Part shown: positions 7,049 through 63,282 of the stretch, one piece after another
Layout: each line of letters starts with the position of its first letter
Numbering within the stretch: the stretch's first letter is position 1
IMG/VR virus record: IMGVR_UViG_646311924_000007
Coordinates: 33,898 to 97,897 of that record
Origin: a virus
Taxonomy: Duplodnaviria; Heunggongvirae; Uroviricota; Caudoviricetes
Strand: one strand, 5' to 3'
Length of the DNA stretch: 64,000 bases
Notes under the pieces: model-generated
What the model saw: only the letters and a program-made list of their open reading frames with translations
Told to the model about the DNA's origin: nothing
Databases searched by the model: none
Made by a program: the position numbers and the translations under genes

Positions 7049-8082
7049 AAAAACCTCTCGTCACCCGTAATGACATAGCCGAAGCTATCGCCCTGCATAC
7101 TGCCTGTATGCCGACACGGGAGATCCCCGGCGCAATTGCCAACTATTTCATGATAACCAGACGTTTTTATACCCGAACAGATAAGGCTGTGATCAACAAG
7201 CTACTGATAGCCGAGATCAGGGATTATTTGATTGAACAAGGACGTCTACGTTACGCAACAGTGGCAGCAGAAATGAGAAAGGAGGCACATAGAATGACCG
7301 GTAATAATTTGAATGTTGAAAAAACAGCACCTGTTACGTCAGCTACGCCAGCACCAGCCGTGAATATCATCCCCAACACCGGAGACACAATCGACAGCCT
7401 GACACTGTTAAAGATGGTCAATGAAGCGCGTAAGTTATGTGGGGAACCAGAGGTTCGGAACAACAAATTCATAGAAAAAATACTCGATGAGCTTGATGGT
7501 GAGCACTACACAAAAAGTGTAGTGGAAAAAATGAACAAAACATCAATGCTTGTCATAACCATGACCTACAAACAAGCCCTGCGAGTCGCCGCACGCGAAT
7601 CAAAAGCCGTCCGCCGTTCGCTGATCGACAAACTGGAAGAATTGCAGCAGGCAAACTCCCCTACCCCATCGATCCCCCAAACATTACCAGAAGCTCTACG
7701 CCTGGCTGCCGAGTTGGCAGAACAGAAAATGCAGTTGGAACAACAGCTGGTGGCCGCAGCCCCTAAAGTCGATTTTGCCGACCGGGTATCAGCGGCTAAT
7801 GGAATCCTGATCGGGAACTTTGCAAAGGTCGTTGGACTTAAGCAAAACGCCCTTTTCTCATGGTTGCGCCAGAACGGCATTCTCATGGCTTTTGGTGCGC
7901 GCAAAAACGTACCGCGCCAACAGTACATCAACGCCGGATATTTCACGGTGAAAGAAGTGGTGCTGGATGATGAAGATGGCTACCAGATACGGCTGACGCC
8001 CCAATTAACGGGTAAAGGCCAGCAGTGGTTAACTCGCAAGCTACTTGATGCTGGTTTGTTAAAACCAGTAGCAATAGGTTAA
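7045..8082 (+). CDS. ant: antirepressor Ant (ORF6N + KilA-C-type domains)
   Basis: 345-aa ORF directly downstream of icd; C-terminal PKVDFADRVS...YFTVKE...TGKGQQWL motif shared with KilA and the second Ant copy. Confidence 0.8.
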   Translation: MKKPLVTRNDIAEAIALHTACMPTREIPGAIANYFMITRRFYTRTDKAVINKLLIAEIRDYLIEQGRLRYATVAAEMRKEAHRMTGNNLNVEKTAPVTSATPAPAVNIIPNTGDTIDSLTLLKMVNEARKLCGEPEVRNNKFIEKILDELDGEHYTKSVVEKMNKTSMLVITMTYKQALRVAARESKAVRRSLIDKLEELQQANSPTPSIPQTLPEALRLAAELAEQKMQLEQQLVAAAPKVDFADRVSAANGILIGNFAKVVGLKQNALFSWLRQNGILMAFGARKNVPRQQYINAGYFTVKEVVLDDEDGYQIRLTPQLTGKGQQWLTRKLLDAGLLKPVAIG

Positions 8083-11809: not shown

Positions 11810-12625
11810 TTAGCCAAGGCGCTTACGGCGCAGTTTCATTGACTTTTTGCGGGCAAGTTTTGCCGCACCCGTCTGGGCTTTTCGACGCGCTTTTTTCAGC
11901 GCCGATTTTTGAGCCGCAGTCAGACGTTTTTTACGCAGGCGTTTACGGATGAGTTTGATCTCACCGTTACGAACAACCTTCTTAAATGCTTCAGTCAGCA
12001 TTTCATCAGAAGTGCCAGCAACAACAAACGCCGCTTCCAGTTCGTCACGGTCGTCGCTATCTAAACCAGCGATAGAGGCACCAACATCAGCAGCTGCGTC
12101 GTCGTCTTCATCGTCAGCCAGTGCTTCGATCAGGTCATCATCTACACCGCATGCTGCGAGGAAGTCAGCAACATTTGCCCATGCTTCGTTATAGGCATCG
12201 TCCTGTTCTTCTGTAACTTCGGAGTCGTCGTCATCAGAGATACCAGCGATAGCCTGAACGAAACCATCAAGGGAGTCGAAAGTCAGATCACCGCTATCAG
12301 CCCAGGCGAAAACGGCGTCGGCCGCATCACTCAACGCATTCTGCATAGCACTTCTATTTGCAGCTTCCAGAATCATCTGGTGCGCCTGTTCGACGGTCCA
12401 TTCTTTACCGTCTTTCCCTTCCAGGATTTGCTCAGGAGCCGGGGCAGATGGAACGTTATCGTTAGTCTGTGCCGCCGGTTCCGGATTATTATTAATAACC
12501 GGATCTGTTGGCTGTTCGGCGCTTGCTCGGGCAGACTCCATCAGCTGCACAGGATCAGAGTTCAAAGCGAAACGAGACAGTCCATTCCCCAAAAATGCCC
12601 CGGATTGAAAAAAGTTTTTGCTCAT
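11810..12625 (-). CDS. acidic protein with highly basic C-terminal tail (271 aa)
   Basis: Asp/Glu-rich body, Lys/Arg-rich C-terminus (KKRLTAAQKSALKKARRKAQ...). Confidence 0.45.
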   Translation of the reverse strand: MSKNFFQSGAFLGNGLSRFALNSDPVQLMESARASAEQPTDPVINNNPEPAAQTNDNVPSAPAPEQILEGKDGKEWTVEQAHQMILEAANRSAMQNALSDAADAVFAWADSGDLTFDSLDGFVQAIAGISDDDDSEVTEEQDDAYNEAWANVADFLAACGVDDDLIEALADDEDDDAAADVGASIAGLDSDDRDELEAAFVVAGTSDEMLTEAFKKVVRNGEIKLIRKRLRKKRLTAAQKSALKKARRKAQTGAAKLARKKSMKLRRKRLG

Positions 12626-12634
12626 TGTATTCCC

Positions 12635-14224
12635 TTACTTAATAAGCAGCGGTACGCCCTGGATACGACGGGCTACGCCAGTCGGGCAGCAGGCCCAGAC
12701 TACTTCCCATTTATCGAATTCCGCCTGCGTAACTTTCAGCACATACGGTTCTGTACCGTCAGCATCAGGATCACGAGGAGCCACCAGAGCGCCGGAGGCG
12801 ACAAAGCGATCTAAAAGTTTGGTCATCCCTTTAGTCAGGCCAGCCGCAGTAATACCGTCCGGGCTATGCTTCATCTGTCGGGCTAACTGGACAAAGAAAC
12901 GGCTGATTGCATTCATCAGGGATGGGACGTGCTGGAAGTGCAGATAGTTATCCTGCGTGCAGCAAGTTAAAGCATCGTCGATGATCATCTGGCCAGAGGT
13001 GCCAACAGATACTTTATTGAGACGGCCCTTGACCATTGCTTCTTCGTCCGGGGTATCTTCCGGATACAGCGGTTGAATTGACGCACGAGCAATGACGGCA
13101 CGTTCTTCACCAGCCGGTGAGTAATGCCAACCGCCGACATCAGAGTTTTTCTTGACGCCACGAGCTTTCGCCGCATACGCCACGCCAGACAGACCAAAGA
13201 CCACACGGGATTGGGTCCATTTGTCTTTGCAGGAGAACGGGTAGTGATAGACAGCACAGCTTACATAATCGGTACCAAGTAAACCGGTATCTTCAACAGC
13301 AGAGAGCGCTTCCGTATACGTCAATGTCGGTTTGACATCAAAGAAGCCATCAATCAGGCGATCAGAACAGATATTACCTAACGCGGTGATCGCCGCATTG
13401 TCATAGCAACCCAGGCCGAGAACAGCGGTGTACATGTACGGCGCATTGTTCAGCACCTTAACCGCACGCAGGTACGCAGCGGTTGAGATTTTCGACTGAT
13501 CACCGTTGGTACCACCAGTGAACGCCAGCGATTTTTTATTTGTTACTTTCGCCGTCGAAATCAGCTCTTCATTAACAACCGCGCGCAGATATTTAGAACG
13601 GGCTTCCAGAGCCGTAGGCAGATAACACAAGCGGCCCATGTCATCTTTCGCTTCTTCCGCCAAAGACACAGTGTGTGTCTCCAGGGTCGTTACCACGCCG
13701 AGCGAAGTCGTCTGGGTCAGTTTTAAGAGGAAGCGTTCATTACCCGCGCTGTCCGCTGTTGCCGTTTCGATGGTTAACTCACGGGTAGGTGAAATACACG
13801 GATCACCATCATCAACGTAGATAGCAAAGGCTTCGCCACTATCAAGTTCAATTTCAGAACCGTATGGCAACGCACTGTAAGCCGGTTCGCCTGATTCATC
13901 GAACATAATAATCGGGAACTTCGCATCATCCGGAACAGCACGAACAACATAACCTGACGTTTGCTGAATAGCTTCGTATACATGGCGAATTGGTTCGAAC
14001 TGTGAGCCGGAAGACGGCTTCAGCGGTTCGCCGAGAACATCTTTGTAATTGGACTCAGTAACCGCAAGAACAGTAAACGGCTTGCCACGCGCAAATACGC
14101 CAATACCAGCCCACAAGCTGCTATTTAATGCAACACCGGTAGATAACGTCGCATCGGCATTGATCGGGCTAACCGCGACGCCGGATGCATTACCTAATGA
14201 CTGTTGAATTGAATATTGAGACAT
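12635..14224 (-). CDS. large virion protein, possibly contractile tail sheath (529 aa)
   Basis: 529-aa ORF in structural operon; size and position comparable to P1 gene 22; no motif-level confirmation. Confidence 0.4.
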   Translation of the reverse strand: MSQYSIQQSLGNASGVAVSPINADATLSTGVALNSSLWAGIGVFARGKPFTVLAVTESNYKDVLGEPLKPSSGSQFEPIRHVYEAIQQTSGYVVRAVPDDAKFPIIMFDESGEPAYSALPYGSEIELDSGEAFAIYVDDGDPCISPTRELTIETATADSAGNERFLLKLTQTTSLGVVTTLETHTVSLAEEAKDDMGRLCYLPTALEARSKYLRAVVNEELISTAKVTNKKSLAFTGGTNGDQSKISTAAYLRAVKVLNNAPYMYTAVLGLGCYDNAAITALGNICSDRLIDGFFDVKPTLTYTEALSAVEDTGLLGTDYVSCAVYHYPFSCKDKWTQSRVVFGLSGVAYAAKARGVKKNSDVGGWHYSPAGEERAVIARASIQPLYPEDTPDEEAMVKGRLNKVSVGTSGQMIIDDALTCCTQDNYLHFQHVPSLMNAISRFFVQLARQMKHSPDGITAAGLTKGMTKLLDRFVASGALVAPRDPDADGTEPYVLKVTQAEFDKWEVVWACCPTGVARRIQGVPLLIK

Positions 14225-14284
14225 AACTTTCCCTGTTATGCGCCCCGCACGGGGGCGCTATGTTAAACGGAGAACTTCCCCTGA

Positions 14285-16012
14285 TTACTCAGAGTCACCG
14301 GCATCAATCGTGTCGCCGCTTATGAAGTTAAGCCCGCCTTTTTTGGCCATTGTCAGCGTTACACGAGTGAAGTAATCAGCGCCGTTGCGTGGGTGCATAT
14401 CGTTGATAGCCGAACCCCACAGTGTGGTACGGTTGACCAGCGCCGGAGTGGTCGGATGCTGGAACGGGATAGCCGGGACAGCATCACCAGTCACGAAGCC
14501 TGCTTTACCCGGATTTTCATCACGGACGTAGCACAGCACATCCATCGAGCTGAACTGAATGTTCTCTGTCGTTAAGTTCTTACAAATACCAGCAGGTACT
14601 TCGTACACTTTCACGTTACCGAACAGGGTACCGATGTAGTGAACATACGGAGTCTGGATATAGTCTTCGGCTGGCTGGAAGAAATCCTTCGGCAACTGTT
14701 TGAAGAAAGATGCTGCATCAGCACCAGCAAACATCCCCATCGCACCAGAAGATTTAACGCGCTCAATAATGTCGCGATATACAGTCTGGAATTTGCCACG
14801 AATGATGGTTGCCCATACATTAAAGGACTGGTTAACCGGCAGAGCGATGTCAAAGGTGTCGGTCGCAAGAGTACGCCAGATCATGATGCGAAGACGCAGC
14901 ATATCCTGTTCATGAGACAGGTATTCCTTCAGGGTGCGGAACTGTAGGGAACCCAGGTCCAGACCAAATTCACGCTGTGCTTCATACGCCGCCTGTACCG
15001 TGTGCTCAGCCGCGATAACGAACTGACTTGGGAACAGGGTGTATTTCTTCATTTCGTGGTTGATCAGCGGGATCAGCTCAGGTGCGGCTTCAATATTGAT
15101 TTCCGTCTCAATTGCGATCTCAGTGCCTTTATCCGGCGCTTTGGAGAACGACAGGGCAATCTGACCAATGTTGTAGTTCAGAGAGCAGGTAACAGTGATT
15201 TGCTCACCAGCAGCATTAGTAAACGAGTGAAGTAGGCTGCCGGAACCGTTATCAACAACAGACTTAATACGGTTAACGTAGATGTTAGTGCGACCTTTTC
15301 GGATTGGTACATTCTGGCCTTCGAAGTCTTCCATCTTGAAGGTTGCGGTTTTGCTGGTGCCATCGGAGCTTGCCACCAGCACATAGCGGCGACGTAACTG
15401 GCTGTACACACCAACGGATTGCATGTCCAGAACATCACCAGCAGCATAAGAACCAAAAGAGGAACCTGCCACGTTAAAGACTTCATAGATGTCGGACTGG
15501 TCACGCGTAACCGGAATGAAGGTACACGCATCAGCGGTAGCTGCCCCCAACTGAACAGGCAGGATCATCGCGAGGAATAAAGGCAGACGCATAACACCGT
15601 CAGAAACGCTCATCATCTCTGCTGCGACGGATTCCAGCATCGCTTTATTAGTGGCATCCATGCTATTGCGGGTGGACTCAATCAGGCAGTTTTCCAGCGT
15701 CTGGTGGCAGGAGGCCAGAATTTCCGGACGCGGCATAGATTTATGTGCTGCGGCGTAGTCAGCCAGTGCACTTGCCCACGCTGTAGCGATTTGAGCGGTG
15801 GCATTATCAGAGATACCCGCAAAAACCGGGTCTTTACGTGCAGCTTCAAGGATAGATGCGGCACGCGCGGCATCATCTTTAATGAATTGGTTATCAGTAC
15901 CGAACTGCGCAGTGCTTGCCCAGCCAAGCACAGCTTTAGAGCGTTTTGCGATATCTGCAATACGATTCTGGTATTCGCGTAAGTTACTCAATTTACTCTT
16001 CCTTAAACACAA
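14285..16012 (-). CDS. large virion protein, possibly major capsid protein precursor (575 aa)
   Basis: 575-aa ORF adjacent to parS, the position of P1 gene 23; size and position only. Confidence 0.4.
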   Translation of the reverse strand: MCLRKSKLSNLREYQNRIADIAKRSKAVLGWASTAQFGTDNQFIKDDAARAASILEAARKDPVFAGISDNATAQIATAWASALADYAAAHKSMPRPEILASCHQTLENCLIESTRNSMDATNKAMLESVAAEMMSVSDGVMRLPLFLAMILPVQLGAATADACTFIPVTRDQSDIYEVFNVAGSSFGSYAAGDVLDMQSVGVYSQLRRRYVLVASSDGTSKTATFKMEDFEGQNVPIRKGRTNIYVNRIKSVVDNGSGSLLHSFTNAAGEQITVTCSLNYNIGQIALSFSKAPDKGTEIAIETEINIEAAPELIPLINHEMKKYTLFPSQFVIAAEHTVQAAYEAQREFGLDLGSLQFRTLKEYLSHEQDMLRLRIMIWRTLATDTFDIALPVNQSFNVWATIIRGKFQTVYRDIIERVKSSGAMGMFAGADAASFFKQLPKDFFQPAEDYIQTPYVHYIGTLFGNVKVYEVPAGICKNLTTENIQFSSMDVLCYVRDENPGKAGFVTGDAVPAIPFQHPTTPALVNRTTLWGSAINDMHPRNGADYFTRVTLTMAKKGGLNFISGDTIDAGDSE

Positions 16013-16124
16013 GGCACTTGTGTGAATCCCTTTTCGGAAGAGATTTTATTGAAAGTCACTTGTTGACTTTCTCGTGACAAGCAATTTTTTTATTTTTTCG
16101 GGAGTAGGGGAGGAAGGTAAAATC

Positions 16125-16214
16125 CAAGGTGAAATCGTGGCGATTTCACCTTGAAATTTTAGATGGATTTACTTTAAAAACAGTAGGTTAATAGTGAAAT
16201 TTGAATGGCGAAAG
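16125..16214 (-). other. parS: parS partition site (P1 type)
   Basis: Reverse complement reads ATTTCAAGGTGAAATCGCCACGATTTCACCTTGG with ATTTCAC heptamers and TCGCCA hexamers plus an AT-rich IHF-like spacer, directly downstream of parB. Confidence 0.75.
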
Positions 16215-16215
16215 T

Positions 16216-17217
16216 TTAAGGCTTCGGCTTTTTATCGAGGCTCTTTCTAAGGATATGCCCAATCATCCTGTCGAGTTCTTCCTGTAGCTCTTTTGAAAGT
16301 CGATTAAACTCATAAGAAAATGCACGGCCTTTCACGCGCTTCCTTGCAAAGCGATCCTTGTCCTCAAATTTCCATAATTCAGTAACTACGGACTTATCTT
16401 TAGAACCTTTATCCGTGAGTAGTGAGGCTTCCTTTGTTATCAAGCGCAGGATTTTATTTTTAACTTCATCTTCGGCCATTTCTTCAATGGATAAGATGTC
16501 GTTTATTTCCGGGGATATGTTTTGAATAAGCTGATCAAACTCTAAATTCTTGTTCCCCATTTCGTCGCCAACAGCACAAAGCGTTTTGTAGTCCGAAAAG
16601 GTTAATTCCGACTGCACAGGGAAAAGGGCGACTAATTCTTCCGGAGCACTCGCTGCCTGGAGAGCACGCGTGACCTTAGCCTGAGACAGCCCTTCTTTGG
16701 CTGCAATATCCTTCTGACTCATCCCATCATTTTTCATTCGCATCAAACGCAGACCTATTTCTCGAATGCTGTGCTGCAATGCTGTCTGAACGTCTTTCGC
16801 TAAATTTTGCGCTTCCTGAACGCTGATCTCCTGGTCCGTGACTAAAACCCGCAACCCTACGTTCTCTAAGATGGCAGAAGCTCGACGCCGGGAACCATCC
16901 AAAATTTCAATTTTCCCTGTACCCCGTCTAACACCTATTGCAGGGTAAAATTGCTGATGCTTAATAGTGCTTCGGATACTTTTTAATGATTTTGGCGTAA
17001 GAGATGCCTGGTCACGCCCGTTGTTATGCTGATCAACAAAGGTATCGCTTTCTACCTGGTTCGGAGGTATTACCTCTTCAATAAATGTGGCCTGGCGACC
17101 AGTTGATAACTTGAATACCTGCTCGACTCGATCGCCAGAGGCTGAAGAACTATCAAATCCGCTTAATATTGAAGGATTAAGGGTTCGCCCAATTGTTGGT
17201 CTGTTTTTCTTTGACAT
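16216..17217 (-). CDS. parB: ParB partition protein (333 aa)
   Basis: 333 aa as in P1 ParB; HTH region (MSQKDIAAKEGLSQAKVTRALQ); downstream of parA and followed by parS. Confidence 0.85.
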   Translation of the reverse strand: MSKKNRPTIGRTLNPSILSGFDSSSASGDRVEQVFKLSTGRQATFIEEVIPPNQVESDTFVDQHNNGRDQASLTPKSLKSIRSTIKHQQFYPAIGVRRGTGKIEILDGSRRRASAILENVGLRVLVTDQEISVQEAQNLAKDVQTALQHSIREIGLRLMRMKNDGMSQKDIAAKEGLSQAKVTRALQAASAPEELVALFPVQSELTFSDYKTLCAVGDEMGNKNLEFDQLIQNISPEINDILSIEEMAEDEVKNKILRLITKEASLLTDKGSKDKSVVTELWKFEDKDRFARKRVKGRAFSYEFNRLSKELQEELDRMIGHILRKSLDKKPKP

Positions 17218-17233
17218 GGGGGTTTCTTACTCC

Positions 17234-18430
17234 TCAGTTAGATCTGATAAATTCAATACGGTCAAAAACTGCTTTAGCAAAATCTTCCGCGGCAATTCGC
17301 GCGTTCTTCAATGCATCAGCACTACCAACATACGTTGCCGGGTTAGCTGAAATAACAGTGTCAAAAGACTCGCCGCAACGTTCAAAACCGTCAAGGCGAG
17401 GGAGGACGACATCGAGCATATCCCCACCGAACACTTCTTTAGCCAGGCTATGGCAATACTTATGATCTGCCTTGTTACTCAACTTGGACATAAAACCAAT
17501 GTTAGTCGCAAGCTGGCACTCGCAGCCTTCATCCGAAATGAGTTTCACCAACTCAGGAAGGCGGGCAACGTATTTAAGCGATGAGTGGAAATCGACAGTT
17601 GCTGGCGGCAGAGGTGTAAACAGTATATTGGCCGAGGCCAAAGCATTTTTCAGGAAGGCGTCAAGGTGAGGACCACTATCAACGAGGATAAAGTCATAAT
17701 CGCTCTTCAGCTTATCAATCACATTTTCTTTCAGGACAGCATGGATGTTCTGACCCGGTAGATGCTCATTGCACAGCTCTCTCCAATCGGATGCAATAAA
17801 GGCATCGTCAATCGACGCAGGCATAACGTCAACCCCAGGTACAACAGAAGGAACAATAAACTCCTCTAACAGCTCTTCACGGCTTACATTCTGCAACATA
17901 GCCTGTGCAGATGTTGCGTTTACGATACCAATAGAGTGTTTATGGCTTAAAAACATCGTTGCTGAAGATTGCGGATCAAGGTCAATAACCAGAATCCTTA
18001 AATCTTCCATCAGAAGATGAGGGTGAGCACGCATTGCATGCGCCAGAGAAACCGTCGATACAGTTTTTGACACACCGCCTTTAAGATTGGAGATGAAAAT
18101 CACATACGCTTCGCTGTAGCGATCCCGGTATTTTGGCACTCCGCGATGTTCATATATGTCAATGATGTTCTGAATTGACATCGCATATTTCATTGAAGAG
18201 CCAGCAGGGCGTTTATCGAAAACATAACCCTTTTCTTCCATTTCACTTACGGCATAGTCAACGTTCGCTCGAGTCAGTAGAGGCAATTTTGCCAGTGCCG
18301 CTTTCGCATAGACCTGGTAAAACTCGTTCGCGTGTAGCTCATCCTTTTGCAACTGTACTTGTTCAGTCAGAACATTGAGCATTCTGTTTGCTCTTTGAGC
18401 AACCTTGTGAAGCTGGCTGGAATCACTCAT
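17234..18430 (-). CDS. parA: ParA partition ATPase (398 aa, long N-terminal type)
   Basis: Deviant Walker A (ISNLKGGVSKT) after an N-terminal regulatory extension; 398 aa as in P1 ParA. Confidence 0.9.
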   Translation of the reverse strand: MSDSSQLHKVAQRANRMLNVLTEQVQLQKDELHANEFYQVYAKAALAKLPLLTRANVDYAVSEMEEKGYVFDKRPAGSSMKYAMSIQNIIDIYEHRGVPKYRDRYSEAYVIFISNLKGGVSKTVSTVSLAHAMRAHPHLLMEDLRILVIDLDPQSSATMFLSHKHSIGIVNATSAQAMLQNVSREELLEEFIVPSVVPGVDVMPASIDDAFIASDWRELCNEHLPGQNIHAVLKENVIDKLKSDYDFILVDSGPHLDAFLKNALASANILFTPLPPATVDFHSSLKYVARLPELVKLISDEGCECQLATNIGFMSKLSNKADHKYCHSLAKEVFGGDMLDVVLPRLDGFERCGESFDTVISANPATYVGSADALKNARIAAEDFAKAVFDRIEFIRSN

Positions 18431-18570
18431 CGAAAGTCATCCTTTATGCTGTATTTTTGAATTTAATTAAAAATGCTGCATAAAATAATAATGTATGCGT
18501 AGATGCTTGTACATGGCATTCTCTGCATGTTTTGTTCATTTTGCACGATTGAGAGTTACAAGAAAGGCAC

Positions 18571-18591
18571 AAAAAAGCCCCGTTCAGGGGC
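18571..18591 (-). terminator. rho-independent terminator (minus strand)
   Basis: On the minus strand GCCCCTGAACGGGGC hairpin followed by TTTTTT, 8 nt after the stop of the 134-aa ORF and just upstream of the par promoter region. Confidence 0.6.
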
Positions 18592-18598
18592 ATCAGTG

Positions 18599-19003
18599 TT
18601 ATTTGCTAAGAGCAGCGAATAATCGTTCGAAATCGATAGTATCTATAGCACGCGTAAGCGCCGGAAGTTCAGCCTCAAAGTACCCGTGTCGATCGTAAAA
18701 GAAGGGACCGAAGAGCGAGGCATGTTGGATTCTACTTCGCCCCAGCCCGGACACACAGTTAAGCCCATTACCGGCTAAAAGGCTAAAAAACTTCTCTGGA
18801 TTATCGTGGTAAAGCTGAGAATCAATGGTGGCGGTTAACTCTTCCATAGGGAAGCACACCCGCCCTGTCTCCCAGGGATATTTAGTCCGAAGCATAAACA
18901 TTGCTTTCAGCAATTCACATTGAGCGCGGATCGCGTCCGGTTCATAGCCAGATATGGAGACATAAGCCACGTCCCTCATTCCTGCGTCATCTTTGAAAGT
19001 CAC
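18599..19003 (-). CDS. hypothetical protein (134 aa), partner of the T5orf172-like gene
   Basis: ORF co-oriented with and 70 nt downstream of the 111-aa gene, followed by its own terminator; no recognisable motif. Confidence 0.5.
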   Translation of the reverse strand: MTFKDDAGMRDVAYVSISGYEPDAIRAQCELLKAMFMLRTKYPWETGRVCFPMEELTATIDSQLYHDNPEKFFSLLAGNGLNCVSGLGRSRIQHASLFGPFFYDRHGYFEAELPALTRAIDTIDFERLFAALSK

Positions 19004-19072
19004 GATAGAAGTAACATCCAGTTCTTTTTCGAAAGAGCGAGCAGCATCTACTGGACGCTGAAGTAAATCATT

Positions 19073-19408
19073 CTACTTAATGCGCTCGAGAATCCCTCCC
19101 CACATATCATTTAGATATTCGATATGAGCCAAAACCTTATCAAGACACTCTCGTGTAAACCATTCAGTATGCCCGCCACCGGCGCTTTTCTCCCACGGCG
19201 CATTCCAGGGGAAAAAGGTTGCGTGTAAAGCCCGCTCAAGATTAACCATTGCCAAACGCGTACCACGATAGACCCGTGAAAGCGCAAAATCGGGACTCAC
19301 TTGTAGCCCTTTAAACCGTGCCAATGGACCACATGAAATGCCGATTTTAAAAGTATCTCCGTTCTCCGGCACCAGAACGTAGAGGTAGTGTTGTTTCTCT
19401 TCTTGCAT
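19073..19408 (-). CDS. T5orf172-type (GIY-YIG-like) domain protein (111 aa)
   Basis: Motifs matching the T5orf172/GIY-YIG-like pattern: YLYVL...GDTFKIGIS...LERALH...GGGHTEWF; start codon checked at 19406-19408. Confidence 0.55.
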   Translation of the reverse strand: MQEEKQHYLYVLVPENGDTFKIGISCGPLARFKGLQVSPDFALSRVYRGTRLAMVNLERALHATFFPWNAPWEKSAGGGHTEWFTRECLDKVLAHIEYLNDMWGGILERIK

Positions 19409-19442
19409 ATCAATACCACTGCTTGATGAGAACCGCGCAAAT

Positions 19443-19699
19443 GTTGACTATGCGCGAAAGTTAATGTGAATAGTTGACTATGCGCGATGTGACTACAGTC
19501 AAAAGTTGACTGTAGTCGATTTAACTCCACCAAAGATCGACTATGTAAGATATTGTCGGGAGAAACGTTGACTATACGCGATGAAATGACCCTAAAAGCC
19601 ATCTCAATAGCGACTTGCAGAATATTGACGCCAGCAAAAATCCACCAGCGTCAACGAATGTCGCCTATAGTCAACTTCTCGCTATCGCATATAGTCAAT
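19443..19699. repeat. incA: incA-like iteron array downstream of repA
   Basis: At least 7 copies of the 15-bp repeat GTTGACTATGCGCGA and variants, in both orientations. Confidence 0.7.
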
Positions 19700-19700
19700 A

Positions 19701-20642
19701 TTATGGATTGCGCTTATGGATCTGAAAGCCGATTTTCCTGCCGTTTTTTATCTCTGAAAATTTAAGATATTCAATAGCTTCCAAATCTTTCATGGCTTTT
19801 CTGATAACGCTATTTTGCACGCTAACGGATGATTTGAGATTAAGCCTTGCTCTAAGGCGCTCAATGCTGACAGGTGCCGGGTTGGCGGGTAGAGCCTCAA
19901 AGAATGTATACAGTACCTTGGCCGTCTCTTTGCGCCCGAGCTTATCCAGCATCTTCAGCTTCAGGATTCGCTTATAGTCAACATAGTAAAGTTCAGATAG
20001 CTGTTTCTGCGGCTGGATCTCGATAACATCAAGCTCGGTATTCAGGCTGCTATATGCCAACAAGTTGACGTTAATGTTATTGAGATGACCTTTTGCCGCC
20101 GGGAAGCGGAATTTGACAACTGTCTGCTGAATGCGTGTCAGAGAGTCATCAATACTTTTACGGAACGCCTTTGAAAGGCGCTTACGTGGATAGCCGCATC
20201 GATCGGCAAACTCGGAGAATGGCAGGGTGATTATGCCGTCATCATCAGGTGCGTAGTCAAACAACGCGGAGGTTATGCCCACCCACACCTTAAAATCAGT
20301 ATCCATATCCAGGCGTGGACCATGAATTTCAATTCCCTCATAGCCTTCCTGCTCAACAATTTTGAGGCTTGATAGTTCTTCGGTTGCGTTCGTTGTGTTT
20401 GTAGTAACTGACGATCCGCGACGTAGTGCCACATTGGTAGATTTTAAGGTTGGCACAAACACACCTAAGCGCAACAAAGCAATGGGTTGTATAGTGCTAT
20501 TGTTATTGGGTTTCAGGCTGTGGATTTCTCCTGTATTTCCTGCAACTTCTTCAACGCTAAGGAAGCCTTTATTTTCTTCCAGCATCGTGGTTTCTCCATA
20601 TGTGGCGCGGCCTGGCGTCATCTGGATTGCAGTTATCAACAA
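19701..20642 (-). CDS. repA: RepA plasmid replication initiator
   Basis: Conserved GPRLDMDTDFK core of P1/RepFIB-type initiators; flanked by iteron arrays; ORF starts with TTG in the track, so the true start is probably an internal ATG. Confidence 0.8.
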   Translation of the reverse strand: MLITAIQMTPGRATYGETTMLEENKGFLSVEEVAGNTGEIHSLKPNNNSTIQPIALLRLGVFVPTLKSTNVALRRGSSVTTNTTNATEELSSLKIVEQEGYEGIEIHGPRLDMDTDFKVWVGITSALFDYAPDDDGIITLPFSEFADRCGYPRKRLSKAFRKSIDDSLTRIQQTVVKFRFPAAKGHLNNINVNLLAYSSLNTELDVIEIQPQKQLSELYYVDYKRILKLKMLDKLGRKETAKVLYTFFEALPANPAPVSIERLRARLNLKSSVSVQNSVIRKAMKDLEAIEYLKFSEIKNGRKIGFQIHKRNP

Positions 20643-20665
20643 CTGTGAATAGTCAGGCTCTAAAA

Positions 20666-20765
20666 TCGCGTACAGTCAATGTTTCTGTCGCATATAGTCA
20701 ACAATAAATCGCGTGCAGTCAACAATAAATCGTGCACAGTCAACATAAAATCGCGTATAGTCAAT
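20666..20765. repeat. incC/oriR iterons (5 direct repeats, 21-22 bp spacing)
   Basis: TCGCGTACAGTCAA, TCGCATATAGTCAAC, TCGCGTGCAGTCAAC, TCGTGCACAGTCAAC, TCGCGTATAGTCAAT immediately upstream of repA. Confidence 0.75.
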
Positions 20766-20767
20766 GT

Positions 20768-20876
20768 TGATCCCATTTCAGGCCAGAAATGGCGCGGCTT
20801 ACAGCGATCCGGGATCTTCTTTGGATCTTCCTGGGTTCTCTTTAGGATCTGTTTATTGGATCTATGCTGTGGATAA
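20768..20876. other. oriR accessory region: GATC cluster and DnaA box
   Basis: Seven GATC sites within about 95 bp followed by TGTGGATAA (DnaA box, reverse orientation); architecture matches P1 oriR. Confidence 0.55.
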
Positions 20877-20918
20877 GTTGAATAAACCGGCCAACATAGC
20901 CGGTTGGAAGGAAGGGTA

Positions 20919-23486: not shown

Positions 23487-24384
23487 GCACTGGAAAAACA
23501 TTACTATTTATAAACTTTCTCGTGAGGCGGATCTGACCGACTTAGAAGATAAAAAGAAAATGATCCTTTTCACGCCATGCGGTAGTCAGGATATGGCCAA
23601 GTTCGGTTTTGTATCGCCATTTGGTGATAATTCTGAAGTTATCGCTATGCATGGAAATGGTTTTATCCTTGTTGAAGCAAAGCGCGAAACAAAAATTCTT
23701 CCCCCGCCGGTTATCCAGCGAGCTATTCAAGAAAAAATTGAAAAACTTGAGCAAGAACAAGCGCGTAAACTGAAGAAAACAGAGAAGGACTCCCTGAAAG
23801 ACGAAGTTCTGCATTCTCTTCTGCCACGGGCTTTTTCAAAGTTTTCTGTTATCCAGGCGATCTACGACGGTTCAACTAAACGTATCTATATCAATGCCAG
23901 CGCGCGGCAGGCAGAGGATATGCTCGCGCTTATGCGTAAGTCTCTGGGTTCTCTTCCTGCTGTTCCCCTGAGTGTTGAAAATCCCATTGAATTAACGCTG
24001 ACCGACTGGGTACGTGATGGTAGTGCTCCACAGGGATTTCAAATGGGGGATGCGGCAGAACTTAAGGCAGTGCTTGAGGATGGCGGTATTGCCCGAGTGA
24101 AAAAGCAGGATTTGGGAAGCGATGAAATTTCCACACACCTGGAAGCTGGCAAGCTCGTCACTAAGTTGGCACTCGACTGGCAGAACCGCATTAAATTTAC
24201 ACTGGACCATAACTTCAGCCTTACCAGCGTCAAATTTGCGGATGAATTGCTTGAGCAGAACTCTGATATTGATAGTGAAGATGTTGCGCAGCGACTGGAC
24301 GCAGATTTCTTCCTGTTGACCAGTGAAATTTCGTGCCTGGTTGATGCTCTGGTAAATGCCCTTGGCGGAGAGGCTAAGCAGTGA
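23479..24384 (+). CDS. hrdC: RdgC-like recombination-associated protein (HrdC)
   Basis: Strong similarity to E. coli RdgC as I recall it ([13 protein letters not shown]..., [34 protein letters not shown]); ATG at 23479 chosen over the longer track ORF starting 23365. Confidence 0.8.
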
Positions 24385-27300
24385 AAGAGCTGTGCTATGG
24401 ATCTGTTTGCAGTGGAATTGAAGCCGCGAGTATTGCCTGGGAACCGTTGGGTATGCGTCCGGCGTGGTTTGCTGAAATCGAGCCTTTTCCATCGGCCGTT
24501 CTTGCGCTCCGCTGGCCCCATGTTGCCAACCTTGGCGACATGAAAAAACTTGCCAAAAAAGTCTTGGCTGGGGAAATCGAATCCCCTGACGTGCTCGTCG
24601 GGGGAACACCATGTTTTACCGCGGGGCATATGGTTCTTTGTAAAAATGGCTATAAACCAATAGAAAATGTTTGCCCTGGTGATTACGTAGTCAGTCATCT
24701 CGGGCGGTTACAACAAGTAAAAAGAGTTGGTTCAAAAATAGCTAATACGGGGTTACTTAATGCCGTTGGGCAGCCTTTAGGTATAAGAACAACCAATGAC
24801 CATCCCTTCCTGGCTGTTCGGTGGAAAGCCCAAAACACCCGGAAAAATGGCACATATTTTAAGAGAGAGTTGTTGTCTGAACCGGAATGGCGAGCAGCAT
24901 GTGATATGCCGGGATATCAATGGTGCGCTCTAACTAATTTCAATATTGCATTTCCAGATATTTGTTCTCGGTTCTTGTCTGAAGAACAGGCTATGTATCT
25001 TGCGGGCGCTTATGTTGGCGATGGATATATTAGGAGATGGAGAGGTAAATCTAAGAAGGCGGTTGTTTTTGGCATAAATTGCCAGAAATTGAGAAAGTTT
25101 CATTGCCGCATACCAGAAAACATATTTTCCGTGGCAAGCGAAATCCGAGGGAGCATCAAAGTAACCTTGAATGATACGTGTTATGCCAATTGGCTTAATG
25201 AACATTTTGGCGAGTTAAGCCATGCTAAGCGTATCCCTGCATGGGTGATGTCGCATCCATTGCGTCATGTGTTTTTACAAGGCTATCTTGATACTGATGG
25301 GACACCAAGTGGTAAAGCGGGATTTAGAATTAATAGTGTTAGTTCTGCGCTTGCTTGGGGCGTTGCGGGGTTGTCACAGACTTGTGGTTATGTTTCTTCG
25401 GTCAGCTTTATTGAAGTTGAGCCCAAAAAAGTGATCGAGGATCGCGTGGTAAATCAACGGAATTATTATCAGGTAACAATCTGCCCGCAGAAATTGTCAC
25501 GTAAATCAAGATTGGCTCATGGAATGCTTTTACGAACAGTCAAAGAGTTTAAATCGGTAGGCCTAGATACTGTATACAACATAGAAGTCGAAGGTGATCA
25601 TTCCTATATCCTCAATGGTGCGGTGGTCCATAACTGTCAGGCATTCAGTATCGCGGGATTACGTGGTGGGCTTGATGATGAGCGTGGCGCGCTAACTTTA
25701 AAGTATGTGGAGCTTGCAAATGCAATTGACGACAAACGGGCTGAGTCATTTCTCAAACCAGCCGTTATCGTCTGGGAAAATGTCCCAGGAGTCTTGTCAT
25801 CGGCAGATAACGCCTTCGGATGTTTCCTTGCCGGATTGGCTGGAGAAGATGTGCCATTTGAACCAGGTGATCGACCTGAATCAGGAAAAAGCAACGCGTT
25901 CTGGCGGTGGGATGGCAAAACCGGTTGCCATGTTCCAAAGTGGCCGCAGTGTGGTTGTATTTATGGACCGCAGCGAAAAGTGGCCTGGAGAATCCTTGAT
26001 GCCCAATACTTCGGAGTGGCACAACGACGCCGACGCGTGTTTGTTGTCGCAAGTGCTCGAACAGATCTCGATCCCGCAACGGTACTTTTTGAGTTCGAAG
26101 GCGTGCGCCGGAATATTGCGCCGAGCAGAGGCGAGGGGAAGGAAACTACCAGATATACTTCAAACATCGCTATCAGAACTTGCGATGATACAAACATAAT
26201 TGCCATGGCACATGGGCAAGGAGGGGCTGAGATAAAAACCGATAATTCGGCACCAACTTTGACATGTAACCATGAAGCACCAATTGTATTGCTCGGCGAC
26301 GGTAGAATGCGCCGTCTTACCCCTGTCGAATGTGAAAGGCTGCAAGGTTTTCCTGATTGGCATACGTTGATCCCTACGGAAAAGCGTAAAAAAGTTAATT
26401 CAGATGAACTGGCATATCTGCACAATCACTATCCAGATTTAAGCGAAGAAGAGGCCGCAATGCTTGCAGCTGACGGACCGCGTTACAAAGCGATCGGCAA
26501 TAGTATGGCAATACCAGTAATGCGCTGGATTGGCGATCGGATTACTAAGGCCGTATGTCGGCAGAAAGAAGGAAGTGAAACAAAAGAGCGAAAAGTTAAA
26601 CCAGCGGCAGAATTCGAACGGTCCATATTCAAATGGGCTGGTGGAAAATTTGGTGTTCTGGAACAAATCTTTCGCTATTTGCCAGAAGGGAAGCGCCTGA
26701 TTGAACCTTTCGTTGGTGGCGGAGCTGTCTTCATGAATGCCGGATACCAGGAAAATCTGCTAAATGATGTGAATGCTGACCTGATTAACTTTTACAAGAC
26801 TCTGCAACGCGAGGCGCATTCACTTATCACTCTGGCACATCGTTTCTTCCAGGACTACAACACACAGGAAGGATACCTGGCAGTACGGAATGCGTTTAAC
26901 AAACAAGTCTATGATGATTTACATCGCGCAGCGGCGTTTTTGTTCCTGAACCGACATTGTTTTAACGGATTGACGCGTTACAACCAGGCCGGTGAGTTCA
27001 ATGTCGGTTATGGGAAGTATAAAACTCCGTATTTCCCATTACAGGAGATGGAAGCCTTCCTCGGTGCGGAAGGGCGGTCTGAGTTTGTATGCGGTGATTT
27101 TGCAGCGGTGATTGAAGCTGCCGGAGAAGGAGATGTCATCTTTTGCGATCCGCCGTATGAACCGCTTCCAAATACAGAGGGATTCACGAACTATTCCGGT
27201 CATGACTTTAAGTTTGAAGAGCAAAAACGCCTGGTGTCTCTGTTGACGGATGCTCATCGTCGAGGTGCAAAGGTTCTCATTACTAACAGTGGCGCGCCAA

Positions 27301-27422
27301 ACATCAGAGAGCTTTATCATGACAGTGGCTTCAGAGTGGAACCTCTTTTTGCCAGACGTTCTGTGTCTTGTAAGGGGGACACTCGAGGTGTAGCTCATGA
27401 CGTTTTGGGTATATTGCTCTAA
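24381..27422 (+). CDS. dmt: bifunctional DNA methyltransferase Dmt (N-terminal C5-cytosine MTase interrupted by an intein; C-terminal Dam-like N6-adenine MTase)
   Basis: C5-MTase motifs I ([13 protein letters not shown]), IV ([12 protein letters not shown] split by insert), VI (ENV), VIII (QRRRRVF), X (GNSMAIPV); C-terminal FVGGGAV and DPPY motifs of Dam-type MTases; GTG start at 24381. Confidence 0.85.
24612..25634 (+). mobile_element. intein with LAGLIDADG homing-endonuclease domain (341 aa; Dmt residues 78-418)
   Basis: Begins with Cys (CFTAGHMVL, block A), block B TTNDHPF, two LAGLIDADG-like motifs ([21 protein letters not shown]), ends VVHN followed by the extein Cys of the PCQ motif. 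Confidence 0.8.
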
Positions 27423-28094: not shown

Positions 28095-28169
28095 GATGGT
28101 GTAGCTCAGCGGTAGAGCAGTTGGCTGTTAACCAACTGGTCGGTAGTTCGAATCCACCCACCATCGCCA
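28095..28169 (+). tRNA. tRNA-Asn (anticodon GUU)
   Basis: Hand-folded cloverleaf: 7-bp acceptor GATGGTG/CACCATC, D-arm GCTCAGCGGTAGAGC, anticodon loop CUGUUAA, T-loop TTCGAAT, 3' CCA encoded; coordinates anchored to overlapping track ORFs. Confidence 0.8.
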
Positions 28170-28174
28170 CTTTA

Positions 28175-28261
28175 GGGGAGTTAGTCCGTAGGGGTAGCGG
28201 GGTAGACTGTAAATCTACTGTCATTGCGACTCGGGTGGTTCGACTCCATCACTCCCCACCA
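28175..28261 (+). tRNA. tRNA-like gene, class II, anticodon GUA (Tyr-like)
   Basis: Acceptor GGGGAGT/ACTCCCC, anticodon stem-loop GTAGA-CUGUAAA-TCTAC, 15-nt variable arm, T-arm GGTGG-TTCGACT-CCATC, CCA encoded; D-arm geometry irregular by 1 nt. Confidence 0.45.
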
Positions 28262-28265
28262 CATT

Positions 28266-28341
28266 GCCGATTTAGCTCAGTTGGTAGAGCAGTCGCTTTG
28301 TAAGCGAATGGTCAGCGGTTCGATCCCGTTAATCGGCACCA
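28266..28341 (+). tRNA. tRNA-Thr (anticodon UGU)
   Basis: Acceptor GCCGATT/AATCGGC, D-arm GCTCAGTTGGTAGAGC, anticodon loop UUUGUAA, T-loop TTCGATC, CCA encoded. Confidence 0.8.
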
Positions 28342-28345
28342 ACAT

Positions 28346-29076
28346 AACAGGTAAGAGCATTCTCCCTTATGGGGCCTGGCTTAAATGCATCGAGTGCTCT
28401 TACCGTTGTGATGAAGTGCAGATCTTAGAAGCAACCAGAAGATAAGCATCTGGCTTCACAACATAAACCGCAGGAACGACCAATAAACGGTAGTCCGTAT
28501 GGAGAACACCCCGTTGAGGAAGAGGCCTGGCCGGAACCGTAACCGGCGACTGGTAATGTGTGTAAATGGAGCGAAATATGTGGGCGTTTAACGGGATACG
28601 GGTTGTAACAGCGATTATTAACGGCGAACTTAAGTATTCACGTTTCGAGACAAATGAACGTGATGGGAAATGTATTGGTGTGCGGTTAGTAAGAGAATAC
28701 GCATAACAACTACAACGTTGAGAACACTGGCGTAACGGGGTCATATCCCAATCTACGAATAAATGTTGCGTTGCCGCGTGACAACCAGTGTTCTCAACAT
28801 TGTGGTGAATGCACAGGCTGATGTGCCGCAACTACAGTAGTGCGCGCTTTGCGGGGCTTGCTACAACCCTGTGTCGGAGTTCAGCACCGACCATCACAGT
28901 TTGATTCTCTGGCATGAGCATAACGCTGAAATAAGTCCAGTCTGGTGCGGTCTGATCACCCGCCGTTAGCTCCACGAAACGGAGCACGTAACAGGTAAGA
29001 GCATTCTCCTGTAACGGGTTCATATCCCAATCTACAGGTCCACCAAGAATGCTCTTTCCGTTGCGGTGAATGCGGC
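28346..29076 (+). repeat. ORF-free tract with three repeated hairpin units (candidate structured RNAs)
   Basis: Repeated blocks ACAGGTAAGAGCATTCTCC (x2), GTAACGGGKTCATATCCCAATCTAC (x2) and TTGYGRTGAAKGC (x3), each embedded in 10-18 bp inverted repeats; only implausible ORFs across it; coordinates +/-1. Confidence 0.45.
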
Positions 29077-62430: not shown

Positions 62431-63282
62431 TTATTGCGCGCTTTCGGGGTTGTCGTTTACTGGCTGCCCCTTCTTGGTTTTACGGCTGCGCGCAACTGAT
62501 GCGGCTGACTTAACCTTTTTCTCTTCGCGAGTGATGGCAATTTGTTTTTTTACATTTTCAATATCTGCCAGGCGATATATTTTTGCCTGCGGCCAGCGGT
62601 CGCAGATGATCGGTTCTATAGAGTCATAAAGGCTAAATTTTGCTTTCTCGAATTCACCGTTGATGATGATTCCATCACGGAGAGTTTCATCGCAGATAAA
62701 CACACCACACAGCGGCACATGGTAACTAACTGATTTACCATCATTGTAGTTAGGGCTACTGGAAATGTAATGGACGCGCAGCATTGTTTCGCTAAAGCCG
62801 TGTACACGCATACGGAATTTTTCATCCTCCGGGTACTGCTTCATTAGCTCTTTTGTTGCTTCCAGGTTCTCTATGTATTTCGCACTGTGCTCATTGATCC
62901 CCGCGCTTTTCTGGATGCGAATGTCCTTATCAATCAGATGAATAATGCGGCCAGCGGTCATGTTGACGCTGTTCACAGCTTCTGTCTGATAAGTTGTAAC
63001 CTTACGCACACCGCGAAGGATGTTAGGCACTGGATATAAAATAGTCTTTGGGATATTGAGGTCTGGGTACTGTTCCAGTTCCCGCGCCATTAAAGTCCAT
63101 TTATCAATTTCAGCCTGAATGCTGTCCGTTTCTTTGAACGGCAGAACGACAACCGGGCGTACAGGACGACCGTCGCTGGCGGCATCAACGTGTTGGGCGC
63201 GTGCAACAGCTTTTTTTAGAAAGAGATCCCTGAAGCTGACGAACTCCTGGTACAGTTGTTCGCCGTAGACATAATTTATCAT
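62431..63282 (-). CDS. c1: C1 repressor of lysogeny (283 aa)
   Basis: 283 aa; MINYVYGEQLYQEFVSFRDLFLKKAVARAQ... is P1 C1 as I recall it; operators upstream. Confidence 0.9.
   Translation of the reverse strand: MINYVYGEQLYQEFVSFRDLFLKKAVARAQHVDAASDGRPVRPVVVLPFKETDSIQAEIDKWTLMARELEQYPDLNIPKTILYPVPNILRGVRKVTTYQTEAVNSVNMTAGRIIHLIDKDIRIQKSAGINEHSAKYIENLEATKELMKQYPEDEKFRMRVHGFSETMLRVHYISSSPNYNDGKSVSYHVPLCGVFICDETLRDGIIINGEFEKAKFSLYDSIEPIICDRWPQAKIYRLADIENVKKQIAITREEKKVKSAASVARSRKTKKGQPVNDNPESAQ

Follow-up and report, generated by a model that had tools for sequence, protein, structure and literature searches.

Phage-plasmids related to P1 carry one of two replicon types, IncY or p0111, with about half of these elements using p0111 as their plasmid replicon (PMC9603915; PMC11165635). 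The phage-plasmid JL22, for example, was typed as p0111, with a gene designated repA' (p0111) and an unknown gene in place of repA (IncY) (PMC9603915). A survey of Salmonella recorded 132 p0111 and 94 IncY elements and inferred approximately 17 switches between the two on a core-gene tree (PMC11165635), and a large clinical survey has used both the IncY and the p0111 genes as screening targets (bioRxiv 10.1101/2025.09.12.675607). In the openly searchable literature, the rep gene of p0111 is named, but its iterons, their spacing, and the junctions of the replicon are not described, and the replicon has apparently never been dissected experimentally. For P1 itself, all 14 annotated iterons are variants of the 19-mer GATGTGTGCTGGAGGGAAA.

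The current analysis concerns a 64-kb stretch of DNA (64,000 nucleotides, hereafter called the window). Its positions 18533-20885 can be identified, with a probability of about 0.9, as the p0111-type plasmid-prophage replicon of a P1-like phage-plasmid, which is an iteron-controlled theta replicon of the RepFIB/P1-RepA family located at the site of the P1 IncY replicon. The p0111-type module is an already documented alternative to IncY that is very common and is not new. As judged from the searchable literature, some small details are apparently undescribed, including the map of its iterons, the iteron spacing that it shares with P1, and an extra iteron inside repA. Beyond annotation the finding carries little importance, and what is added by mapping the iterons, by locating the junctions, and by recognizing the iteron copy within repA is small.

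Extent of the replaced module

Comparison of the window with the P1 record NC_005856 by using blastn and local alignment defines a replacement module of ~2.35 kb (18533-20885, no strand assigned). Positions 12000-18532 are 98.9% identical to P1, a match of ~96% resumes in blastn from position 20782, and nothing between these two segments matches at the nucleotide level. The left break at 18532 is just upstream of the par promoter. The right break is graded. Local alignment of the segment 20782-20885, in which the GATC repeats are followed by the DnaA box, yields ~75-80% identity to P1 oriR with insertions and deletions, and near-identity returns only at ~20886, past the GATC/DnaA segment, so the replaced unit is the complete basic replicon rather than repA alone. 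In the P1 record, the stretch that has been replaced runs from 61316 to ~62915 and covers incA and repA as well as the incC iterons and the portion of oriR with the GATC sites and DnaA boxes. In the window, its place is taken by a module made up of a pair of small ORFs, the incA-like and the origin iterons with repA between them, and a GATC/DnaA segment that has diverged. The module lies on a P1-like backbone between parA and upfA in place of the IncY repA gene, and the flanking regions are 96-99% identical to P1.

The P1-type partition system has not been replaced. It occupies positions 16129-18532 on the minus strand at 98.9% identity to P1, and consists of parS (16129-16211), parB (16216-17217), parA (17234-18430), and the par promoter/operator, with Pfam matches to ParA HTH_54, AAA_31, and ParB. 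An earlier reading made from the sequence alone (hereafter the sequence-only reading) stated that parS matches that of P1 essentially exactly, and this description is acceptable. All annotated ParB A-boxes and B-boxes are identical to those of P1, and five substitutions are present elsewhere, two of which fall in the annotated IHF site.

The p0111 label is assigned to the module on the basis of its 99.1% identity to JL22, which was typed p0111 in PMC9603915; the PlasmidFinder reference for p0111 is AP010962, and the label used here comes from the JL22 comparison. Over the whole 1.5 kb compared, nucleotide identity is 97.7-99.5% for the phages Ro157c2YLVW, SJ46, JL22, phi456, and RCS47. The module is present in 398 PLSDB plasmids, for which the best matches are 100% identical and include several plasmids of STEC. 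Among 5,426 complete E. coli genomes, 414 (~8%) carry the module with 97-100% conservation, compared to 361 that carry the P1 IncY module, and 456 of its 464 places in these genomes are on plasmid-sized records. On two records, NZ_CP027223.1 and pHum4b, the same replicon is typed as 'IncHI1B' by MOB-suite (as given in PLSDB), although the name used in the literature and by PlasmidFinder is p0111. This discrepancy could mislead automated typing.

Two small ORFs on the minus strand are located between the control iterons and parA. One encodes 134 amino acids (18599-19003), has no Pfam or NCBIfam match, and has no counterpart at this position in P1. The other encodes 111 amino acids (19073-19408) and is GIY-YIG-like, with a match to Pfam T5orf172 (E = 6e-07) and the RefSeq name 'GIY-YIG nuclease family protein'. 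The two ORFs are found together in 411 E. coli genomes, compared to 414 with the replicon, and they are contiguous with it wherever the listed coordinates can be compared. This co-distribution and contiguity argue that both ORFs belong to the module. Thus, the replicon and the two small ORFs move as one unit in hundreds of phage-plasmids of E. coli, Salmonella, and Shigella. It can be speculated that the GIY-YIG/T5orf172 ORF might aid the exchange of the module.

The replication initiator and its relatives

The repA gene (19701-20585, minus strand) encodes a predicted iteron-binding initiator of 294 amino acids. The same coordinates are used for the RefSeq coding sequence WP_000888906.1, annotated on an identical plasmid under the name 'RepB family plasmid replication initiator protein'. 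The longest ORF for this gene extends from 19701 to 20642 with a TTG start. The ATG at 20585 is taken as the start codon because it is the start chosen by RefSeq, is preceded by GGAG, and is consistent with an alignment that reaches residue 2 of P1 RepA.

Several observations indicate that this protein is homologous to the characterized WH1-WH2 winged-helix initiators of the Rep_3 and RepFIB/P1-RepA type. Its alignment with P1 RepA spans the full length at 41% identity (E = 2e-71) and begins with residue 5 against residue 2 of the P1 protein. The Pfam domain Rep3_C is matched with 27.0 bits (cut-off 21.1), and Rep3_N is matched with 21.7 bits, which is just under its cut-off of 22.4. The identity to RepFIB initiators described below points in the same direction. 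No NCBIfam model matches RepA or the 111-aa ORF, and a PDB sequence search found no usable relative with a solved structure.

A tblastn search of PLSDB with RepA reveals a sharp gap in identity among the 5,000 best-scoring records, of which 394 have at least 95% identity, four have 60-95%, and 4,602 have less than 60%. The nearest distinct relatives are initiators from Klebsiella IncFIB plasmids (44-49%), pO157 RepFIB (47%), Pantoea (46%), and Mixta (43%). Judged by sequence identity, the window RepA is slightly closer to RepFIB-type initiators than to P1 RepA. The hint of a RepFIB-type relationship in the sequence-only reading was therefore reasonable given the values for pO157 RepFIB and the Klebsiella IncFIB plasmids. 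Two matches were considered as donor intermediates and rejected. The match in pHum4b (90% identity), which was the one record examined of the four between 60% and 95%, is uninformative, as its ORFs are fragmented and it has the look of an IncHI2/P1 cointegrate assembled with many errors. The Mixta match is an ordinary RepFIB-like relative.

Iterons upstream, downstream, and inside of repA

Iterons were mapped by scanning the entire window with the 15-mer TCGCGTATAGTCAAC, allowing up to three mismatches, and by comparing the outcome with 100 shuffles. There are 13 matches, of which 12 are clustered within 1.3 kb (19443-20765). The shuffled sequences give 1.22 ± 1.08 matches with a maximum of 4, and none of the 100 reaches 13. 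The sole match outside the replicon, at 39959-39973 (minus strand, three mismatches), fits the chance expectation of ~1.2 per window.

Five iterons on the plus strand form the incC-like origin set (20666-20765), with starts at 20666, 20688, 20709, 20730, and 20751 and a spacing of 22, 21, 21, and 21 bp. Downstream of repA there are seven intergenic copies in both orientations, one of which is degenerate. The distal incA-like set (19443-19581, minus strand) is inverted relative to the origin iterons and has a spacing of 30, 32, 31, and 31 bp. Its copies are located at 19443-19457, 19473-19487, 19505-19519, 19536-19550, and 19567-19581. Four of these come from the scan, and the copy at 19536-19550 was found by direct reading; it is degenerate, with five mismatches as read by eye, and lies exactly on the 31-bp period of the set. 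The two proximal incA-like iterons (19661-19675 and 19685-19699, plus strand) are oriented like those of the origin, and the second of the pair ends 2 bp before the repA stop codon. This map bears out the sequence-only reading with respect to the five evenly spaced upstream iterons, and its count of at least seven iteron-like repeats downstream in both orientations is fair. The span of 19443-20876 that it assigned to the replicon is bounded exactly by the first distal iteron and the DnaA box.

One additional iteron resides within the 3' part of repA (19968-19982, plus strand), where TCGCTTATAGTCAAC, with a single mismatch, covers codons V202-R206. By our own estimate, the chance expectation for a copy with at most one mismatch within 885 bp is ~8e-5. 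Comparable searches of P1 repA for the P1 iteron, allowing up to six mismatches, yield no internal copy, and no iteron copies were found inside the rep genes of pO157 RepFIB or the Pantoea relative. In Mixta, the RepFIB-like rep gene does contain copies of the Mixta iteron, close to the corresponding position. The intragenic copy in the window is accordingly noted as no more than a local peculiarity. If RepA binds the intragenic site, the bound copy may block transcription as a roadblock or offer one more place for handcuffing or titration, providing an intragenic layer of control that P1 IncY is without. A broader proposal holds that the intragenic iteron is a working RepA-binding site and, in addition, that the two replicon types are exchanged among P1-like backbones when recombination takes place within the par promoter and the GATC/DnaA segments common to both. 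Taken as a whole, this proposal should be regarded as rather unlikely.

The GATC/DnaA segment and the repA promoter

Adjacent to the origin iterons is a cluster of six GATC sites (20769-20862, no strand assigned) at positions 20769, 20806, 20813, 20824, 20846, and 20859. In P1 oriR, the homologue of this segment is the Dam-methylated repeat region. Four of the six sites in the window read AGATCC on the repA strand. Six sites in 94 bp can be compared to a mean of 3.8 per kb in the window, for which we estimate a Poisson probability of ~2e-6 for six or more. The sequence-only reading had counted seven sites, which is one too many, but it correctly noted a DnaA box. A perfect copy is present at 20868-20876 on the minus strand, matching TGTGGATAA and given as TTATCCACA on the repA strand. 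A DnaA-box-like 9-mer, TTATCAACA, with one mismatch, is found at 20633-20641 (plus strand), in the interval that separates the origin iterons from the start of repA.

Each origin iteron includes TTGACT on the repA strand, which agrees with the consensus for the -35 element at five of six positions. No promoter on the repA strand passed a scan with the sigma-70 consensus, and therefore the placement of the repA promoter within the iterons is inferential, being suggested by TTGACT and by analogy.

Competing explanations for the replicon

The simplest competing explanation is that the window carries the canonical P1 (IncY) replicon and that the difference in iterons was an error of the sequence-only reading. 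The window resembles P1 in its layout, its iteron spacing, parABS, upfA on the flank, and the GATC/DnaA segment, and the oriR/incC - repA - incA architecture with a DnaA box and Dam-site repeats is indeed present. However, RepA is far from near-identity with P1 RepA, the product of the typing target K02380 repA, and neither the incC-like nor the incA-like iterons are of the 19-bp GATGTGTGCTGGAGGGAAA type. The best ungapped match between TCGCGTATAGTCAAC and GATGTGTGCTGGAGGGAAA is 8 of 17 positions, which is at the random level (mean 7.8), and megablast with the module did not retrieve P1, P7, or K02380. These findings refute the canonical explanation, which retains essentially no probability. 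They come from the alignment to P1 that the sequence-only reading had proposed as a check, in which neither RepA nor the iterons proved to be identical to the reference. Its statement that P1 iterons are a different 19-bp sequence was correct, and its suggestion of a different RepA/iteron specificity on a P1 backbone gains support from the diverged initiator and the random-level iteron match.

A second possibility is that RepFIB proper was recently captured from a conjugative F-type plasmid or a Klebsiella IncFIB plasmid. Several depositors annotate the gene as 'RepFIB replication protein A', RepA is nearer to its pO157 RepFIB (47%) and Klebsiella IncFIB (up to 49%) counterparts than to P1 RepA (41%), and the window iteron agrees with the pO157 RepFIB repeat at 11 of 19 positions, a marginal similarity at the ~99th percentile of random sequences. 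A recent capture is nevertheless improbable given the sharp gap in identity, with just the four PLSDB records between 60% and 95% noted above, the lack of any nucleotide-level match to an F-type RepFIB in blastn at a word size of 11, and a GATC/DnaA segment that is a recognizable homologue of P1 oriR. Still less credible is the notion that the module is a nonfunctional remnant and that the prophage is maintained by something else. Neither the repA ORF, which is preceded by a Shine-Dalgarno sequence, nor any of the iteron sets is disrupted, conservation is 97-100% across the 414 complete genomes with nearly all copies on plasmid-sized records, and the literature treats p0111 as the plasmid replicon of P1-like phage-plasmids. 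The preferred interpretation thus continues to be a p0111-type replicon located at the IncY site of a P1-like element.

Predicted mechanism of replication control and its consequences

The steps by which the p0111-type replicon might operate can be proposed by analogy with P1 and RepFIB. RepA monomers would bind the five origin iterons with their 21-bp spacing, host DnaA would bind the flanking box, and the duplex would be expected to open in the segment of Dam-methylated GATC repeats. If the repA promoter is embedded in the origin iterons, RepA would repress its own synthesis. The array of iterons downstream of the gene, and possibly the intragenic copy as well, would sequester RepA by titration and become coupled to the origin in the process called 'handcuffing'. 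Together, titration and handcuffing would be predicted to hold the copy number near one per chromosome.

By the same analogy, some predictions can be made regarding incompatibility. Because the iterons and RepA are unlike those of P1, incompatibility with an IncY P1 through incA and incC is predicted to be absent. Partition incompatibility through parS (incB) is predicted to persist because the ParB boxes of parS are identical, and phage immunity would probably stay P1-like. Thus, two P1-like elements that meet in one cell should have compatible replicons, but the shared parS specificity and phage immunity would probably still exclude their co-residence. The finding rightly distinguishes the specificity of the replicon, that of a p0111-type RepA and its iterons, from the phage backbone and partition system of P1 type, and this distinction is relevant to the typing of phage-plasmids in STEC and Salmonella.

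Other differences from P1 in the window

Certain differences from P1 occur outside of the replicon module. The dmt ORF (24381-27422, plus strand) carries a clean in-frame insertion of 1,020 bp relative to P1 dmt, located at 24615-25634 in the part encoding the C5-methyltransferase. The junctions read GGTP/CFTAGH...VVHN/CQAFS, in which the slashes mark the boundaries of the insertion. In Pfam, LAGLIDADG_3 passes its cut-off and Hint_2 narrowly misses its own (28.2 versus 28.4 bits). The insertion has the appearance of an intein that bears a homing-endonuclease domain and is placed at the catalytic PC motif. Another short stretch of dmt, at 26125-26310, has no match in P1 and stands in place of positions 12352-12783 of the P1 locus, so that this bifunctional methyltransferase is a mosaic.

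Three tandem tRNA genes, Asn-GTT, Tyr-GTA, and Thr-TGT, are present at 28095-28341. Only the Asn and Thr genes are annotated in reference P1, and therefore tRNA-Tyr (28175-28261) is extra. The segment at 28236-28547, after the tRNA genes, is only 82% identical to P1.

Comparison with known replicons

Among described systems, the p0111 replicons of SJ46, RCS47, and JL22 are closest, since they occupy the same position between parA and upfA and have the same accompanying gene or genes, with nothing of substance that differs from the window. The RepFIB-type relatives are more distant. Replicons of Pantoea, Mixta, and pO157 RepFIB follow the same overall scheme as the window, each with its own iteron sequence. 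Those of Pantoea and Mixta have five upstream repeats with a spacing of 21-23 bp, and all three have inverted copies downstream. Unlike the window replicon, RepFIB and IncFIB replicons sit in conjugative or large plasmids and are not found beside P1 parABS.

With regard to P1, the layout of oriR/incC, repA, and incA recognized in the sequence-only reading is confirmed by the spacing and orientation of the iterons and by the GATC/DnaA segment. The genes follow the same order and occupy the same place in the phage genome. P1 iterons 10-14, with starts at 62688, 62710, 62731, 62752, and 62773, have the identical 22/21/21/21-bp spacing of the window origin iterons. The incA iterons 1-6 of P1 are inverted and spaced by 30-31 bp, as in the distal set of the window, and P1 incA iterons 7-9 are the counterpart of the proximal pair, with the last of these likewise abutting the repA stop codon. 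The logic of orientation is therefore common to both replicons, with proximal copies direct with respect to the origin and distal copies inverted. P1 also has a DnaA box with one mismatch, at locus position 7869, in the interval corresponding to 20633-20641 of the window.

Set against these likenesses are several differences. The two RepA proteins are homologous but have diverged at 59% of positions, and there are seven intergenic control iterons in the window compared to nine in P1. Of the five P1 GATC sites, four persist at their positions and one has disappeared; the window has gained a site next to the lost one and has an extra site at the edge of the iterons. P1 has two tandem DnaA boxes (annotated site 62891-62908), whereas the window has one. 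The window also has the iteron inside repA and the two added ORFs between the control iterons and parA. Overall, the sequence comparisons indicate that, within the RepFIB/P1-RepA family, the window replicon represents a specificity type of its own, which is distinct from the replicon of P1 itself and was not recently captured from an F-type RepFIB.
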